Positions 95-10,974 of a stretch of 64,000 bases of DNA are shown here, in pieces. The stretch spans positions 183 through 64,182 of the forward strand of contig CAWUKF010000001.1 of assembly GCA_963922745.1 (NCBI GenBank). The letters run 5' to 3'. Source of the stretch: an uncultured Sphingomonadales bacterium. Lineage in GTDB: Bacteria; Pseudomonadota; Alphaproteobacteria; Sphingomonadales; Sphingomonadaceae. Below the pieces are notes generated by a model that did no database searches, was not told the origin of the DNA, and saw nothing but the letters and a program-made list of their open reading frames with translations. The position numbers and the translations under genes are program-made. Each line of letters begins with the position of its first letter. The first letter of the stretch is position 1.

Positions 95-460
95 TCAGAG
101 TGTATAAGGTACGCGAATTCCCGGCATGCTTGCCGGGAAGTCGACAGTGTTGCGCGTGATCAGGATCGCACCATTAACCTGCGCCGTAGCGAGGATGTAG
201 GCATCCAGCAACTTCATCCGTGTCCGGTGACGAATATCCGCCGCGGCGGTTGCGATCCGCTGATCGATTTCGATGACTTCGAAGGGAGATATCGCTTGCT
301 GGATGACGCTTCGATGTTCCAGCGCCTCGCCGGCGAGAATTTCGGTCCATACGATCCTGCTTATCCGGTGGCGGCGGTATCGCGATATCTCCGCCCGCGC
401 CAGTGGCTGTCGCTTCAGCCAGTCGATCAGGATATTGGTGTCAAAGAAAGGATCAGACAT
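95..460 (-). CDS. vapC: VapC-family PIN-domain toxin
   Basis: 121 aa with the PIN acidic motif pattern FFDTNILID...EILAG...LLDAYILATA...LITRNTVDF; 3 nt downstream of a small antitoxin gene. Confidence 0.9.
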   Translation of the reverse strand: MSDPFFDTNILIDWLKRQPLARAEISRYRRHRISRIVWTEILAGEALEHRSVIQQAISPFEVIEIDQRIATAAADIRHRTRMKLLDAYILATAQVNGAILITRNTVDFPASMPGIRVPYTL

Positions 461-463
461 CAG

Positions 464-712
464 TTAGATATCGTCATGGGTTGTGCGATTCTCTCGCAGA
501 TCACGCTGATATTGCAGACCGTCGGGGATATCCTCTCGATCAGCCCACAGCCCGTACCCCCGGTCGATCCAGCTTCGGTCATCGGTCTTCTGGGCCAGAA
601 AAAGACGGATCGCCTCCCGTAACAGCGAGGCACGCGAGCGTTTCTGGCTCGCGCCGAGCGCGTCCAGCTTGTCGATATCTTCGTCGGGCAGATCTGCGAG
701 AATACGGGTCAT
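464..712 (-). CDS. vapB: Ribbon-helix-helix (CopG-type) antitoxin, VapB
   Basis: 82 aa; MTRILADLPDEDIDKLD...SRASLLREAI is an RHH pattern; C-terminal GLWADREDIPDGLQYQRDLR; directly upstream of the PIN gene. Confidence 0.8.
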   Translation of the reverse strand: MTRILADLPDEDIDKLDALGASQKRSRASLLREAIRLFLAQKTDDRSWIDRGYGLWADREDIPDGLQYQRDLRENRTTHDDI

Positions 713-759: not shown

Positions 760-1395
760 TCAATATTCCAGTTCGACGACTCCATCTTCCGACGTCGCGG
801 CATAAAGCTCGGACTTGTCATAATCAATCGGCCGAACATCAGGATCGGAACAGGAATGACGGGCGACAGTCTTGCCGGCCTTGCGGACGAATATGCCGTC
901 TTCAATGGCTGGATCGTTCGGCTCGCCAGGCGCGAAATTGGTCCGGATCACTCTACTATAGATGATATATTGGGTGTCCCCGCGCCGGAATTGCAGTTGT
1001 GCTTCGCCGCCGCCCGAATAGGGCACGGAAGCAAATTGGATACGGTCGGCACTGTCCGGTCCCGGCCAGGCCAGCTCTGGCACTTGCCCGACTTTACCGT
1101 AGCGATATTGCGCGACGACAGAGCCAGTCCCGTTTTTCAGACCACATACGGAAGCCATTTTCTTGTTTTCGAGCTGGCAGGAGAACAGGACATCCTCGCC
1201 CGGTGCACAAAGACCGGTGCCTGACAAGGTGGAGGTTGTGCCCGCCGGTTCTTCCGACTGGGGCTCCTTCTCTTGAACCAGCGGATCAGCGGAAGCCACT
1301 GACTCTTCTGCCGATTCCGCGTCCGCCGGAGCGGACTTCTGATCACATCCAGATAAAATGATAGCGACCGTCGCAACCACCAAAGCCATCTTCAT
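760..1395 (-). CDS. Uncharacterised lipoprotein
   Basis: Lipobox-like IILSG-C after a hydrophobic N-terminus, an acidic linker and a domain with four further Cys; ATGA overlap with the glmU stop. Confidence 0.75.
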   Translation of the reverse strand: MKMALVVATVAIILSGCDQKSAPADAESAEESVASADPLVQEKEPQSEEPAGTTSTLSGTGLCAPGEDVLFSCQLENKKMASVCGLKNGTGSVVAQYRYGKVGQVPELAWPGPDSADRIQFASVPYSGGGEAQLQFRRGDTQYIIYSRVIRTNFAPGEPNDPAIEDGIFVRKAGKTVARHSCSDPDVRPIDYDKSELYAATSEDGVVELEY

Positions 1396-2861: not shown

Positions 2862-3896
2862 TCATTTCGTTGGCTTTCCGCCTTTGCGCCATTTGGTCCA
2901 CAAATGGCGGGCAAGCATCAGCGGCGGCATCCGCAGCCAGTGGGAGCGGATGTAAAAGGCAAGGCGTATCGCTTTCCGTGTTTCCCGGCCATAGCCGTCA
3001 CGAGCCAGCAAACGCCGGACATAGAGATAGTCGACAAACCGGGCCTTTCCGGAGCGATATTTGTGTACCGGCGTATGATAGAGGCGGGCCGCCAGTCGCA
3101 GGGCCCGTTCCATTTCCGGAACGAGGTCGTGGATTTTAGCGCGTTCCTCCAATTCCGTCCAAAATCCCTCGTCAGCTTCGGCAAATTGCCGCACCAGCAG
3201 GTTGATGTCCCACAGGTTGCGCAGCCCCCCGGCGAGATCGCCGTCGGCGAACATATGGGCAATCGAATGCAGAAGCATATCGGCTGGTGCCATGACATGG
3301 AGACCGCTGTCCTGCTCTACCGCGCTGTCCAGAATCGCGTCGGCGTCCGGCGTGGGGCGGGCCGTCAGCGGCAATATCGTGTGATGCACATCGATCATCC
3401 GGTCGCGCTCGCGGTGAATCAGCGGCGGCAGCTCGTGCATATGCTCACGATAATAGCGGTCGTCATAGGGGTCCGGTTTGACCCATTCCCAACCGGCGTC
3501 GAGCAGGGCACTCTCGACCACCGGCAGATCATCGCGTGCCACCATGATATCGAGATCGCCGATACTGCGCCCCACGCCGGCCGAGAGATTTGCGGCCACA
3601 TAGGCGGTGCCCTTCATCAGCACGGTCTTACCCGGATAATTCGCCAGGGCCCTGCGCGCGCAGTCCGCTTCCCATAGCGCCTGACGACGCGCCAGATCAT
3701 GGGCTTCAATAGCGTCCTGAAGAACAGCACGCACCTTATCCGGCACGCGCACATCGGCGAGCCGGTGGGCCAGCGAGCCGATCAGCGATTCCGCACGCGC
3801 GATGCTGATCAGTTCCGGCCATTGGCTATTTTCGAGCATCCCAACGCTGGCCGGATCCCGCAAAGCCCGGACAAGAACATGCGCATCGCCAATCAT
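2862..3896 (-). CDS. Nucleotidyltransferase family protein (NTP_transf_5-like), HPr-rel-A system
   Basis: LMKGTAY...RSIGDLDIMV (KG and DxD motifs) and IDVHH. Start placed at the ATGA overlap with the kinase stop (3893-3896); the ORF track starts at 3911. Confidence 0.8.
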   Translation of the reverse strand: MIGDAHVLVRALRDPASVGMLENSQWPELISIARAESLIGSLAHRLADVRVPDKVRAVLQDAIEAHDLARRQALWEADCARRALANYPGKTVLMKGTAYVAANLSAGVGRSIGDLDIMVARDDLPVVESALLDAGWEWVKPDPYDDRYYREHMHELPPLIHRERDRMIDVHHTILPLTARPTPDADAILDSAVEQDSGLHVMAPADMLLHSIAHMFADGDLAGGLRNLWDINLLVRQFAEADEGFWTELEERAKIHDLVPEMERALRLAARLYHTPVHKYRSGKARFVDYLYVRRLLARDGYGRETRKAIRLAFYIRSHWLRMPPLMLARHLWTKWRKGGKPTK

Positions 3897-4762
3897 GGCA
3901 GTTGGCTCCACAGGCTTTCGATCAGTTCTTCCGCCTGTTCGATCGACTGATAATCCATAGCCCTGGCCGGCACCTGATCGACGAAACCGGTCAGAGCGCG
4001 AAATCCGGCCTCACCGAGTGCCACATAATTGGTCGATGCCTGGGTCAACCGAATGAAGATTTCCGCCTGTCCCATGGGCCGGAGCTCCGGATCATGACCG
4101 AAACGGGGAAATAGCAGCAGCGCCGGTCTGGCCGGGTCGCCCATTCGGTCGATCGCCGCCTTCGGGGGCACCAGATGGCGGATATCGCCCTTCGGCGTGC
4201 CCTTCATCTCGGGGCCAAACCGGTCATTCGGGACAAGTTCCTCCATCGCCGCTATCGCCTGGTTTTTCAGGCTGATCAGCCGCGGAAACGGTACCAGACT
4301 GCCCGACGTCAGATCCAGCAGGGCAAATTCATCCCCCATGAACCGCCATCCTTTCTCCGCGAGCATCGCAGACAGCGTCGATTTGCCCGACCCCGACAGG
4401 CCGGTCATGACCATCGCCTTGCCGTTCTTTTCGACACTGCTTGCGTGAAGCAGCAAATGCCGCCGCCAGCCAAGCGCCATCTGCAGATTCATGCCCATTT
4501 CGGCAGCCAGCAACCCCTGGGCCAGCGGCAGCGGCGCGGCGTCAGGCAGCCAGAAATCGCCACTAATGTGCACCGAAGGCCGGATATAGCGTCGCCAGGG
4601 TCTGCCGGCTTCAAGCCGCACCGTGAAGTCGACGATGCCGTCAGCAGGTGCGGGATATTTGGCGTACAGAGCTTCCAGCTGATCCAGAGGCTCGCGCCAG
4701 GCAGAGACGATCCGGAAGGAGGCAGGCCCGATCTTGAGCAGAATCCGGTGCATATTTCGCAT
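3893..4762 (-). CDS. HprK-related kinase A
   Basis: LLLHASSV...GLSGSGKSTL...GWRFMGDE gives the HPrK-type His, Walker A and acidic pair; it lacks the N-terminal domain of true HprK and sits between PqqD and nucleotidyltransferase genes. Confidence 0.85.
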   Translation of the reverse strand: MRNMHRILLKIGPASFRIVSAWREPLDQLEALYAKYPAPADGIVDFTVRLEAGRPWRRYIRPSVHISGDFWLPDAAPLPLAQGLLAAEMGMNLQMALGWRRHLLLHASSVEKNGKAMVMTGLSGSGKSTLSAMLAEKGWRFMGDEFALLDLTSGSLVPFPRLISLKNQAIAAMEELVPNDRFGPEMKGTPKGDIRHLVPPKAAIDRMGDPARPALLLFPRFGHDPELRPMGQAEIFIRLTQASTNYVALGEAGFRALTGFVDQVPARAMDYQSIEQAEELIESLWSQLP

Positions 4763-5046
4763 CAGTCCAAAACTCTCGCGACCAGCCCCAGATCGGCCAG
4801 TTCAGCCAGCCGGGCGTCGACGATATTTCCAGTGTCGCCGCCAGATTCGAAATCAAATCCGGCCTCCAACCGTGCCACGATTTCGGATGCCGAGAGCGCT
4901 GCATCGGCCATGACTTCGAGGATAGCGGGTGCGGGATCGGCCAGCATATGAGTGATCCCCGAGGGTCGATGAAACAGCAGCGTCATGCTGTCCAGTTCAT
5001 GCCAGATCAGATCATCTTTCGGCGCTGCCCGATATTTCTGGGTCAT
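4762..5046 (-). CDS. Stand-alone PqqD-family / RiPP recognition element protein, HPr-rel-A system
   Basis: 94 aa; LLFHRPSGITHML (three-strand region) followed by helices ending LAELADLGLV, the typical PqqD winged-helix pattern; TGATG overlap with the kinase. Confidence 0.85.
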   Translation of the reverse strand: MTQKYRAAPKDDLIWHELDSMTLLFHRPSGITHMLADPAPAILEVMADAALSASEIVARLEAGFDFESGGDTGNIVDARLAELADLGLVARVLD

Positions 5047-5118
5047 GGTGGCTTACCTGCGATTCTGCTCGGACATGCCGTTCTGATAGCAGGCAAATGT
5101 TAAAATGGGGTGGGATTA

Positions 5119-5550
5119 TCAGCGCGGCATCTGTAGCGAAGCATAGCAGGTGAAGCCGGACTGGCCGGCCTGCAGGCGCCGGATATAATTTACATAGGCC
5201 TGGGACTGTTCGTAGGATGTGCCCGGAAGCGTCCGTCCGTTCATCGCCTGCCGCACTTCTTCACCGGTGAAATTGCGCCCCGCAGGCGCGAATGCGCCGG
5301 GCGTGTCGGGCGAAACGACGGTGCCATCCGCAGCAATATGCCCGCCCATCGAACGATTGTCGGGAACCGGAATTTCGCAATTGAGCACGGAACCAGCGGT
5401 TTGAGCCAACGCCGGTTTGATGCTGACCACCGCCGATGCGGTAATCGCCCCCATCATCAAGGCACGACGGCGGGTGACAATGCCGAGATTCTGGTCGGCC
5501 TTGACTGGCAAGTCAGATGGACGGTTATCGGTCATTGCGTTTCTATCCAT
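5119..5550 (-). CDS. Tat-signal small protein; candidate substrate/precursor of the adjacent PqqD-kinase-nucleotidyltransferase genes
   Basis: TRRRALMMG twin-arginine-like motif, hydrophobic stretch and PALA|Q cleavage site; the mature part is bracketed by SVLNC and GFTCYASL. Start may be at 5535. Confidence 0.7.
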   Translation of the reverse strand: MDRNAMTDNRPSDLPVKADQNLGIVTRRRALMMGAITASAVVSIKPALAQTAGSVLNCEIPVPDNRSMGGHIAADGTVVSPDTPGAFAPAGRNFTGEEVRQAMNGRTLPGTSYEQSQAYVNYIRRLQAGQSGFTCYASLQMPR

Positions 5551-5774
5551 GATTCTACTAGCTTTAGATATCCGCTCATTAGCAGAAATCGGGCAGAAAG
5601 CGAGTAAACAGTCTGCCGCTAAAATCTGCGTCTACAATCGGGACATAGACAGGAAAATCGTTAACAAGACCTCTATATCTGGGCCCTGCGGACGGCGGCA
5701 CCCGAAATATTCCGATTGCCGATCCGCTGCGGCAAAGCCTAGATGGATGGCATGACTGTATCAGAATCGGCCAG

Positions 5775-7046
5775 ATGACCTCGGTTTCCCCTTTTCGGCT
5801 GCTCGTTGCGATGGCTTTCGTTCTCGGCGGTGCCATTCTCGCGGGCGAATTACCCCAATCGGGACAGCAGTTCATCTTTGTCTTCGCCAGCGGCGCGATC
5901 GCCCTGTTCATAGTCCTTCAGGATAGGCCAGCGCCACCTCTGCCAGACCCGGCTGCGCTCGAACGACAGCGCAAACGGATTCTCTATCAAGGGCGGTCTG
6001 AGGCCTATCAGGACATCATAAATCCGATCACCGACCCGATATTGCTGGTGCGGAACGCAAAGGTCGCCGCCGCCAATCCCGCAGCGGCGAAAGTCCTTGG
6101 CAATCATATTGTCGGTGAGGATGTGCGCATCGCCATCCGGCACCCTGCCGCAGCGGACCGTCTGGCCAATCCGGATGCCCAGCACAGCGGAGAGCCGATC
6201 CTGCTGGTCGGGGTCGGCAGCACCGAACAGCGTTGGGAGCTGCGTATCAACACGCTTCAGGATGGCCTGAAACTGGTCCAGCTTTCGGACCGAAGCAGCC
6301 GCTATGCAACAGAGCGGATGCGCACCGACTTTGTCGCCAATGCCAGCCATGAACTACGCACCCCGCTCGCTGCAATCAAAGGTTTTCTGGAGACTCTGGA
6401 AGACCCCAAGGCTGGCAAGGATGATGCGACCCGCGCCCGCTTTCTCAAAATCATGTATGACGAGGCCGATCGAATGCAGCGGCTGGTCGAGGACCTGATG
6501 TCGCTTTCCCGAATCGAGGCGGCGAAGTTCGAACTTCCTTCGGAAAAGATCGACCTCAGCGATCTGATAGGGGAAGCCCGCGATTTCTACATCAACAGTC
6601 GGGGCAAGAAAGAGAGCGAAATACTGGTCGTGCTTCCTGATTCCATTCCCCTGATCCACGGTGATCGCGCGCAACTGTCTCAGGTCGTGAACAATCTGCT
6701 CAGCAATGCCTTCAAATATGGGAAGAAGGGCGCGCCCGTTACAATAAGCCTCTCATCCAACAGCGCCGGAACGATGCTTTGTCTTGCCATCACCGACCAG
6801 GGAGACGGCATTGCACCGGAGCATATCCCGAGACTCACCGAACGCTTTTATCGCGTCGACAAGGGGCGCAGCAAATCCATAGGCGGGACCGGTTTGGGCC
6901 TTGCCATCGTCAAGCATATTACCGAGCGGCATGGCGGACGCATGGAAATCACCAGTGCGCTCGGAACCGGCACGACGGTGTCGATCATACTTCCGATCGC
7001 CAGTAATTCGCCTGACAATGGAGAGGCTGCTGATGCTGCCGCCTGA
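5775..7046 (+). CDS. phoR: Phosphate regulon sensor histidine kinase
   Basis: DFVANASHELRTPL H-box, NLLSNAFKY N-box, G-boxes and HIPRLTERFYRVD; first gene of the pst cluster. Confidence 0.92.
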   Translation: MTSVSPFRLLVAMAFVLGGAILAGELPQSGQQFIFVFASGAIALFIVLQDRPAPPLPDPAALERQRKRILYQGRSEAYQDIINPITDPILLVRNAKVAAANPAAAKVLGNHIVGEDVRIAIRHPAAADRLANPDAQHSGEPILLVGVGSTEQRWELRINTLQDGLKLVQLSDRSSRYATERMRTDFVANASHELRTPLAAIKGFLETLEDPKAGKDDATRARFLKIMYDEADRMQRLVEDLMSLSRIEAAKFELPSEKIDLSDLIGEARDFYINSRGKKESEILVVLPDSIPLIHGDRAQLSQVVNNLLSNAFKYGKKGAPVTISLSSNSAGTMLCLAITDQGDGIAPEHIPRLTERFYRVDKGRSKSIGGTGLGLAIVKHITERHGGRMEITSALGTGTTVSIILPIASNSPDNGEAADAAA

Positions 7047-7094: not shown

Positions 7095-7123
7095 TTGTCA
7101 CATAATTGTAACATATCTGTAAT
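7095..7123 (+). promoter_or_regulatory. Pho box (three half-sites) upstream of pstS
   Basis: TTGTCAC-ataa-TTGTAAC-atat-CTGTAAT: three CTGTCAT-like heptamers at 11-bp period with A/T spacers. Confidence 0.88.
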
Positions 7124-8333: not shown

Positions 8334-9719
8334 GTGACCAGTGCGACGCTTCTTTTTCTCGTGATCGGGCTGGGCCTGATGGCGTGGTTTTTCGGGCGCC
8401 TCAAGGCAGCCGGCCTGCAGACCCGTGACGTCGGCTCCCGCTCGGTGCTGCATTCGCTTCCCAATTACCATGGCTGGTATGTCGCCTTGTGGGCGATACT
8501 GCCCGCGCTCATTTTCATGGCCGTCTGGAGCTTCGTCAGTCCGGCGCTGATCACCGATGCCGCGCTGACCAGCCCCGCTGCCGCGCAATTGCCGCAGGAG
8601 GGTTTCGCCCGGGCGGCAATATTGTCGGAGGCGCGCGCCATTGCCTATGGCAATCAGGTCAATGCCTTCAACCCGCTGTCCCAGTCGATGGTGGAGCCCT
8701 ATCGAGAGGCCATCACCTATTACCAGATGATCGGAGCGGTCGCGGCGCTGTTGCTGGTTTTTGCCTGCGGCGCCTATGCTTGGCTGAAAATCAAGCCCGA
8801 TCTGCGGGCACGAACGAAAATCGAGCGGGTGACCATGCTGCTGCTGCTGCTCGCGTCGCTGATCGCAATCATCACTACGGTCGGCATTTTCCTCTCGCTG
8901 GTCTTTGAAACGGCCCGCTTCTTCTCGATGGTTTCGCCGATCGATTTCCTGTTCGGTACCGAATGGAATCCGAAGGCGGTTGCGGGGCCCCGGGGCGAAA
9001 CCGGATTTGGTGCCATCCCCCTGTTCTGGGGAACCGTCTTCATCGGCGCGATCATCGCGATGATCGTGGCAATCCCGCTCGGATTGATGAGCGCGATCTA
9101 TCTAACGCAATATGCACCGGCAAAACTCCGGTCATGGATGAAGCCGATCCTGGAAGTGCTCGCGGGCGTGCCGACCGTAGTCTATGGCTATTTTGCGGCG
9201 CTGACCGTGGCCCCTGCCCTGCGCGACTTTGCGGTTTCCATCGGCATTTCCAATGCGTCTTCGGAATCAGCCCTGGCAGCCGGCGTCGTGATGGGCATCA
9301 TGATCATCCCTTTCGTTTCGTCTATGGCCGATGACAGTATCGCTGCCGTGCCAAGCGCGATGCGGGACGGATCGCTGGCGATGGGTGCCACGCACAGCGA
9401 AACTATCAAGAAGGTGCTGATCCCCGCCGCCCTGCCCGGTGTCGTCGGCGGCGTGCTGCTGGCGGTGAGCCGGGCGATCGGTGAAACGATGATCGTGGTG
9501 ATGGCCGCGGGCCTGGCTGCCAACATGACCGCCAACCCCTTCTCCAGTGTGACCACGGTGACCACACAGATCGTGCAGCTGCTGACCGGTGACCAGGAAT
9601 TTGACAGCCCCAAAACCCTGGCGGCCTTTGCCCTCGGTCTGGTGCTGTTCATCGTCACCCTGTTGCTCAATCTGATCGCCCTGCGCGTCGTCAAAAAATA
9701 TCGGGAAGCATATGAATAG
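8334..9719 (+). CDS. pstC: Phosphate ABC transporter permease
   Basis: Multiple TM segments, LAGVPTVVYG and SRAIGETM; operon position. Confidence 0.95.
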   Translation: MTSATLLFLVIGLGLMAWFFGRLKAAGLQTRDVGSRSVLHSLPNYHGWYVALWAILPALIFMAVWSFVSPALITDAALTSPAAAQLPQEGFARAAILSEARAIAYGNQVNAFNPLSQSMVEPYREAITYYQMIGAVAALLLVFACGAYAWLKIKPDLRARTKIERVTMLLLLLASLIAIITTVGIFLSLVFETARFFSMVSPIDFLFGTEWNPKAVAGPRGETGFGAIPLFWGTVFIGAIIAMIVAIPLGLMSAIYLTQYAPAKLRSWMKPILEVLAGVPTVVYGYFAALTVAPALRDFAVSIGISNASSESALAAGVVMGIMIIPFVSSMADDSIAAVPSAMRDGSLAMGATHSETIKKVLIPAALPGVVGGVLLAVSRAIGETMIVVMAAGLAANMTANPFSSVTTVTTQIVQLLTGDQEFDSPKTLAAFALGLVLFIVTLLLNLIALRVVKKYREAYE

Positions 9720-10974
9720 TCTCACCGACACAGGCCGCCGTCCGACGGACTGGCAAGGCGCTGACATGCAGAAGCGGATCGCCGGGCGCTATGCGGCCGA
9801 ACGCCGGTTCAAGGCGATGGGCATCGCGGCAATCGTGCTGTCCGCTGGTTTTCTGGCTTTCCTGCTGGTGGTCATGGTCGGCAACGGATTCCGCGGCTTC
9901 ACACAGACCGAACTGCCGGTTCAGATAGATTTTCCGGCTGTCACCGGCGGCGCCTCTGCCAGCCAGTTCGTGGGAAACAATGCCGAGGCCAATCTGCAAA
10001 CCCTCGGGTTGCGGGATATTGTCGATAGCAGCATTGAAATCGAATATGGCCGGCAAGGCTCCGAACTGTTCTCGCAGGGCGGATGGACTGCGGTCAGCGC
10101 TGCAATCCTGAACGATCCGGAGATCGTCGAACGGAAGGCCACTGTCTACCTGCCGGTCGCGTCGGATATCGACGTCGCCTACAAGGGCAGCGGGACCGCC
10201 GAAGCCGAGGAGCAGGTCCGGAAACTGGACGGCCAGCTTTCGACCGGCTTCAACTGGAATTTCCTGAGCAATTCGGACGCCACCGACCCGATGCAGGTCG
10301 GCATTTGGGGCGCGTTCAAAGGCTCGCTGATCACCATGATCGTGACCTTGATGCTGGCCTTTCCGGTTGGTGTACTGGCGGCACTATATCTCGAGGAATA
10401 TGCGCCCAAGAACCGGCTGACCGACCTGATCGAGGTGTCGATCAATAATCTTGCGGCCGTTCCTTCGATCATATTCGGCCTCCTCGGTCTGGCGGTGTTT
10501 CTGAATTTCTTCGGCATGCCCAGGTCCGGCGCGCTGGTCGGCGGTCTGACCCTCGCCCTGATGACCATGCCGGTAATCGTCATTTCCGGTCGCAACGCGG
10601 TCAAATCGGTTCCGCCCTCGATCCGCGAGGCCGCGCTCGGAATCGGTGCAAGCCCGCTGCAGGTCGTGTTCCACCACGTCCTGCCACTGGCCCTGCCCGG
10701 CATATTGACCGGCACCATCATCGGCATGGCACGCGCTCTTGGCGAAACTGCCCCGCTGCTGATGATCGGGATGCGGGCCTTCATCGCCACGCCGCCGGAC
10801 GGGATCACCGACCCGGCCACCGTGTTGCCGGTCCAGATATTCCTGTGGTCGGATGAAGTCGACCGCGGCTTTGTCGAGAAGACCTCGGCAGCGATCATCG
10901 TGCTATTGTTGTTCCTTCTGGTCATGAATGCCCTCGCGATTTATCTTCGCAATCGTTTCGAAACGCGCTGGTAG
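9712..10974 (+). CDS. pstA: Phosphate ABC transporter permease
   Basis: [20 protein letters not shown] and [10 protein letters not shown]; overlaps pstC. Confidence 0.95.

Follow-up and report, generated by a model that had tools for sequence, protein, structure and literature searches.

What a stand-alone PqqD/RRE-type chaperone, an HprK-related kinase and a nucleotidyltransferase may do together, and on which substrate, is the question raised by four minus-strand open reading frames (ORFs) at 5119-5550, 4762-5046, 3893-4762 and 2862-3911 in the DNA of an uncultured Sphingomonadales bacterium (assembly GCA_963922745.1, contig CAWUKF010000001.1, positions 183 to 64,182; this whole stretch of 64,000 nucleotides is hereafter the window). 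The answer that we favor, with a probability of roughly 0.64 for the reading as a whole, is a four-gene HPr-rel-A cassette: the twin-arginine leader of the first gene product would be bound by the RRE, the recognition element of RiPPs (peptides made by ribosomes and modified after translation), a Ser would be phosphorylated, the phosphate extended by the transferase, and the protein would exit by predicted twin-arginine translocation (Tat). Judging from the sequences, that the four genes work together is nearly certain. Their linkage and identities, the intact catalytic motifs, the all-or-none inheritance, the invariant Ser/Cys motifs and the near-restriction to exosortase genomes are direct observations; from them we infer binding, modification and export, that is every chemical step. 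The features concerned are these (aa, amino acids):

5119..5535, minus strand: candidate substrate, 138 aa, no known family (alternative start 5550, 143 aa), made of a variable acidic n-region, the twin-arginine leader and ~94 aa of mature domain with two Cys
5404..5475, minus strand: leader T21-A44, a putative signal for Tat that may also be the handle for the RRE, with RRRALMMG, a 15-residue uncharged stretch, a basic residue and an A-L-A cleavage-type site
5377..5391, minus strand: S49-x3-C53, directly after the predicted cleavage site, invariant in 31/31 sequences
5137..5160, minus strand: C-terminal S126-G-F-T129-C130-x-A-S133 motif, invariant, with alternative candidate acceptors and the second Cys
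4762..5046, minus strand: stand-alone PqqD/RRE-type chaperone, 94 aa, TIGR04353
3893..4762, minus strand: HprK-related kinase A, 289 aa, TIGR04352
2862..3896, minus strand: nucleotidyltransferase-fold protein, 344 aa, PF14907

The last three genes are readily identified. The chaperone scores 57.6 bits with TIGR04353 (cut-off 35) and adjoins the kinase, which scores 250.7 bits with TIGR04352 (cut-off 200); the ORF at 2862-3911 matches PF14907 with 163 bits (cut-off 31.2), adjoins them in turn, and is what we take to be the gene that comes third in HPr-rel-A as TIGRFAM defines it. The overlaps TGATG (4760-4764), where the chaperone stop meets the kinase start, and ATGA (3893-3896) are read directly from the sequence, and because of the latter we place the transferase start at 3896. 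The first-pass annotation had described four co-oriented genes with these overlaps and motifs and had assigned the trio to HPr-rel-A: the reading of the sequence and the searches with hidden Markov models bear it out on both counts. Each of the four genes is single copy in its own genome, which is 81% complete, and the closest relatives of the locus are Parasphingorhabdus records.

Both enzymes appear intact from their sequences: H106, G124-K-S-T129 and D144-E145 of the kinase are invariant among 22 aligned homologues, as are K95-G96, D114, D116 and D169 of the transferase among 23, and its DxD is present in 35/35 homologues. A strict regular expression for the kinase matched only 18/37 and was left unused. 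The structure model of the transferase is confident (pLDDT 92) and matches MenT1 (Z 13.1, root-mean-square deviation 2.6, 175 aligned), TglT (Z 10.6) and ANT(2'') (Z 9.9), so that by its model the protein is of the MenT1/ANT(2'') nucleotidyltransferase fold, a match that says nothing on function. Sequence searches of solved structures gave no match for the transferase and the P-loop region only for the kinase; the chaperone profile found LppB (9x8z), with an E-value of only 0.54.

The fourth gene belongs to no Pfam or NCBIfam family. It is nevertheless, on sequence grounds, a real gene of the cassette: among 3320 candidates for this ORF 3265 were retained as homologues, and the median dN/dS over residues 21-138 is 0.08 against 22 close relatives. 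The first-pass annotation was right to count it as a gene, less so about its 143 aa: it probably starts at 5535 and encodes 138 aa, since just 12/24 close relatives retain the first ATG and the identical database protein has 138 aa.

The association is seen in inheritance. From 542 kinase relatives 80 loci were retained, and the ORF precedes the chaperone in 79 of these; kinase and transferase occur in the identical 96/201 genomes of the order, and within its own family (f1) ORF, kinase and transferase occupy exactly the same 37/128 genomes. The losses also match inside three genera of this family (14/16, 4/7 and 2/3), although, the genomes being related, all these counts overstate the independent events. 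The three genera with such losses provide five genomes without the cassette, and in 4/5 the distance from phoR to glmU is 0.9-1.4 kb, as against 3.0 kb here; both of the gaps that were read contain a gene of HAD/gph type but none of the cassette. The ORF also persists at a distance of 160-690 kb from the kinase in G282, G476, G508 and G575, all of genus g7, and stands beside phoR in the two of these that were read. The co-occurrence of a twin-arginine, two-Cys ORF with the trio, whose absence the first-pass annotation had named among the findings that would refute it, is found, and the ORF is deleted together with the trio.

Beyond the family the ORF is harder to follow. Because it diverges, its profile recovered it in only 7/72 genomes of the order outside f1; an ORF with an RR leader nevertheless stands upstream of the kinase in 11/11 order-mate loci outside f1 that include upstream DNA. 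The TIGR04352 cut-off is passed in 52/401 sampled Pseudomonadota genomes (G324 being in the denominator only), and in 25 of the 30 best-scoring distant loci an RR-leader ORF lies at most 2.3 kb upstream; the rule applied was drawn up once the sequences were known, and 119/8011 ORFs of our genome pass it. In L107 the ORF was found by profile, and in L098 it lies 2.2 kb upstream (L149). The L120 locus (8731-10245) has two tandem paralogous RR-leader ORFs ahead of one cassette.

The anatomy of the candidate substrate, from 31 aligned sequences, shows where constraint is concentrated: identity is 16% at residues 2-20, which are variable, 72% in the leader (21-44), 85% at 45-58, 59% in the middle and 91% at 113-138. 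The hydroxyl and Cys residues that do not vary are S49, C53, T78, Y114, Y117, S126, T129, C130 and S133. Among 40 distant full-length homologues, chosen beforehand for an RR and for C-x-x-S at the C-terminus, 34 have a Ser four positions ahead of the first Cys, while this Cys follows the leader motif at anything from 13 to 33 residues. Among 33 distant upstream ORFs, [ST]-C-x-x-S occurs near the C-terminus in 25 and S-x-(F/W/Y/N)-x-S directly after the leader in 7; one or the other is present in 31/33, against 1.3 in shuffles, both motifs having been picked after inspection of the sequences. The structure model of the protein is weak (pLDDT 63, pTM 0.48); it gave no fold match, and its Atlas neighbors are unnamed clusters.

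The leader has the marks expected of a Tat signal: it keeps the twin Arg, a stretch free of charges, a c-region that is basic and an invariant A42-x-A44. A permissive TatFind-like rule is met by 78/78 close homologues and 27/33 distant leaders, and TatC is encoded in our genome. The leader is also as conserved as what follows it (74% versus 72% identity), whereas the signal of PstS, as a control, is at 47% versus 65% (25 loci with both genes). In a complex prediction the chaperone and residues 15-56 gave a score of 0.27, for a mark of 0.32.

Finally, the cassette is tied to exosortase. An exosortase match (E<=1e-50) is present in 94/96 kinase-bearing genomes, the two exceptions being fragmented genomes. 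Outside f1 the kinase and the exosortase are 4.1-14.5 kb apart in all 42 same-contig pairs, a further 16 genomes having them on different contigs or without listed position, and genes of the XrtA system accompany 16 of 20 distant loci, as judged through one scanned representative per BLAST cluster. Two other markers were of no use: PrsT was too noisy in the family, and a PEPxxWA-CTERM search gave no match anywhere, controls included.

Altogether, these data suggest the following course. The chaperone would bind the conserved twin-arginine leader of the 138-aa protein; that the leader is the RRE handle is favored, with some reserve. The kinase would then phosphorylate an invariant Ser in the cytoplasm, and we regard it as quite likely that the upstream ORF provides this substrate. 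LppK, the kinase of the linear polyphosphorylated peptide (LPP) clusters of Bacillota, also assigned to TIGR04352, offers a direct precedent for such a phosphorylation by analogy: it adds 1-4 phosphates to the core Ser3 of LppA, directly after the leader (PMC13381572). Because of this analogy S49 is the leading candidate acceptor, S126, T129 and S133 being alternatives. The transferase would extend the phosphate on the modified Ser; that it adds a sugar or sugar-phosphate, as PsmN does, is a tentative proposal, a little short of an even chance. Export by Tat and cleavage at A44 by an ordinary signal peptidase, in place of LppS and LppD, is likely from the shape of the leader, and a C53-C130 disulfide, as the paired Cys suggest, would reasonably be expected to close the exported protein. 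The product might then act in the XrtA exopolysaccharide or surface system, to which the gene distribution gives slightly better than even odds. A still wider proposal, which we hold doubtful, is a widespread proteobacterial route of protein glycosylation, in which the Tat signal would double as RRE leader and a folded mini-protein would, while still cytoplasmic, be given a Ser-(pyro)phosphate-sugar, be exported and disulfide-closed, and prime or organize the exosortase-A exopolysaccharide coat.

Several observations weigh against this scheme. One of the 80 loci (L059) has no such ORF in the DNA examined, nor have 3 of the 30 distant ones (L100, L101 and L108). The split arrangement in genus g7 may be a single event; shared ancestry likewise inflates the counts of joint loss. 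Leader profiles built from distant loci do not bring this ORF among their top matches in our genome, and therefore its kinship across classes rests on intermediates and on motifs chosen post hoc. As to the leader, the permissive TatFind-like rule is failed by 6/33 distant leaders, TIGR01409 is passed by 0/15 (best 13.8 versus 16.7, for one distant member), no [Y/W]xxP motif is found in the leader, which has neither Tyr nor Trp, and the Pro of distant leaders is replaced by Ser, Ala or Thr in the clade studied here. The exosortase link is one-sided: 58 exosortase-bearing genomes lack the cassette, and in our genome the xrtA locus is on another contig (C3), unlinked from it. Lastly, expression in a heterologous host yielded no product of LppN (PMC13381572).

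The alternative that survives best, though unlikely, is that the ORF is a partner or output rather than the substrate. The two enzymes would then produce or activate a sugar phosphate, nucleotide sugar or other small molecule that the XrtA exopolysaccharide requires, or would act on different exported proteins, for instance those with PEP-CTERM. The nesting of the cassette in exosortase genomes, near xrtA outside f1, suits this view, as do glmU/glmS adjoining it in many Sphingomonadales, a glycosyltransferase-like gene lying between ORF and chaperone in L060 (with like-sized gaps in L071 and L077), and ANT(2'') as closest small-molecule fold match. On the other hand, a stand-alone RRE implies a peptide client, the invariant Ser beside the leader fits the LPP logic, and the enzymes are tracked one for one by the ORF, not by xrtA. 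More improbable is a protein modified and retained, its RR-hydrophobic stretch being solely an RRE-binding leader and its product cytoplasmic or membrane-anchored: a leader as conserved as the mature part, unlike that of PstS, and the failure with TIGR01409 would be accounted for, but not the preservation of every Tat element down to A42-x-A44; furthermore the paired invariant Cys suit an oxidizing compartment and no dedicated peptidase or exporter is found among the shared neighbors. Very unlikely is a thioether, for which the Ser would be activated as a leaving group by phosphate, then nucleoside monophosphate (NMP), and a Cys would close the ring within S49-x3-C53 or C130-x2-S133. The fixed spacing of the first Ser and Cys despite the changing distance of the Cys from the leader motif speaks for it, but the shared neighbors include no lyase or cyclase, and in the relatives put to the test (LppK, PsmK, PsmN) what stays on the Ser is phosphate or hexose.

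The weakest alternative, a toxin-antitoxin pair of the MenAT/TakA-TglT kind, with a nucleotidyltransferase as toxin and the kinase to silence it, is extremely improbable: MenT1 and TglT are indeed the best fold matches of the transferase model, but the 96 genomes have one copy apiece, at chromosomal sites that are stable, the cassette occurs in 4/72,556 plasmid records and in no phage record, PADLOC has no match for the transferase, chaperone and ORF would be left unexplained, and a Ser/Thr two positions ahead of the first catalytic Asp, presumably the phospho-acceptor in MenAT/type VII pairs (PDB titles name S78 and T39), is not conserved in 35 homologues (Ile here; mostly hydrophobic, with a minority of Ser/Thr/Ala).

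The cassette is flanked on one side by glmU, a lipoprotein gene and an RHH/PIN pair (RHH, ribbon-helix-helix), and on the other by phoR-pstSCAB-phoU-phoB. We rejected glmU adjacency as a mark of the cassette: many loci have no glmU flank, and glmU stays beside phoR after cassette loss. The lipoprotein (211 aa, without family, window 760-1395) overlaps the glmU stop and is present in a minority of close relatives, and the RHH (CopG) and PIN genes at window 95-712 form a VapBC-type toxin-antitoxin module. In Sphingobium loci the gene between ORF and chaperone encodes 394 aa (L060, 4479-5663; GT4 by eye); beta/gamma loci (L141, L131, L136) repeatedly have two further genes close to the cassette, one ThiF-like (PRK08223) and one for an exosortase-associated acyltransferase (TIGR03694); and on Vibrio alfacsensis plasmids the cassette (L157, 6878-9945) has a 270-aa hypothetical gene upstream and lies away from any listed exopolysaccharide gene. 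Control by Pho was discarded, there being no Pho box in 5550-5775 and matches in windows of the genome being at chance level; three Pho-box-like repeats stand in tandem upstream of pstS (window 7095-7123). A sigma-54 site was likewise discarded (none in the window; 13/76 relatives versus a shuffle maximum of 14), and Rfam gave no match. Between the ORF and phoR lies a palindrome, GTC(C)-N7-(A/G)GAC, at window 5630-5644 (and 5600-5612), kept in 54/75 relatives against 1.6 in shuffles; a near-identical copy is on contig C26 near 5978. As it is retained upstream of phoR in the cassette-free L152, it may regulate phoR.

If correct, the scheme would give the HPr-rel-A families, which are named in NCBI annotation without an assigned substrate, a specific one. 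With four candidate acceptor residues and a tested analogue in Bacillota, this makes the cassette testable in sphingomonads that can be cultured; what PF14907 proteins catalyze might thereby come to light, the LPP study having failed to show activity (PMC13381572), and it would be the first case of an export signal serving as RiPP leader.

How does this locus compare with known systems? With HPr-rel-A it shares gene order and both models over cut-off, and RefSeq gives the HPr-rel-A gene names in Sphingomonas parapaucimobilis (NZ_CP155749.1); the difference is the fourth gene, without family and annotated as hypothetical protein. We found no paper on this cassette, its substrate or its product, in a search outside which most subscription papers fell. 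The first-pass annotation had called the system undescribed. This holds for its proteobacterial Tat version, but the chemistry of a cyclase-free RRE, kinase and NTP (nucleoside triphosphate) transferase was published for Bacillota in 2026 (PMC13381572). The LPP clusters described there (LppA/K/B/S/D/N) comprise an RRE, a kinase resembling HprK, an NTP transferase, an SpI peptidase and an exporter, without cyclase; they are located in capsule loci, and the supplement assigns LppK to TIGR04352 and LppN to PF14907. The words Tat, twin-arginine and "proteobacteri" are absent from the main text, and TIGR04353 and "Sphingo" from the supplements searched. Common to both systems are a discrete RRE, a TIGR04352-type kinase, a PF14907 transferase and no cyclase, besides a precursor of 35-200 aa with a conserved N-terminus, a Ser directly after the leader and a link to polysaccharide loci (PMC13381572).

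The first-pass annotation also stated that no lasso cyclase, leader peptidase or ABC exporter is adjacent, and this stands. No lasso cyclase exceeds the cut-off in our 81%-complete genome, the sole match (220.7 bits versus 525) being at the xrtA locus on contig C3; Pfam PqqD has no match there either; the two S26 peptidases are on other contigs (C29 and C158), none being among the cassette neighbors; and near the cassette there is no MsbA-like exporter, only the Pst phosphate importer. Compared with LPP, the present locus thus has no YxxPxVL...S precursor motif, no cluster-encoded SpI-like peptidase (LppS) and no MsbA-like exporter (LppD), but a leader with twin Arg, followed by a mature domain that has two Cys and a C-terminus under conservation; and it is inherited vertically in single copy, in contrast with the patchy spread reported for LPP (PMC13381572). 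The LPP leader, peptidase and exporter being missing, we therefore regard it as a Tat-leader variant rather than an LPP. With pseudomycoidin and paeninodin, where PsmK phosphorylates and the NTP-transferase PsmN is needed for a hexose on the phospho-Ser (PMC6993621), it shares an HprK-family kinase and a DxD NTP-transferase; it differs by the want of a lasso cyclase, of a B2 peptidase and of a C-terminal Ser (the candidate substrate ends in ...SLQMPR). MenT1/TglT and ANT(2'')-Ia resemble the transferase by the fold of the catalytic domain, at 10-17% identity and with no gene context in common. By its sequences, then, the locus is a member of HPr-rel-A that would work like LPP and belongs to neither the LPP nor the lasso systems.

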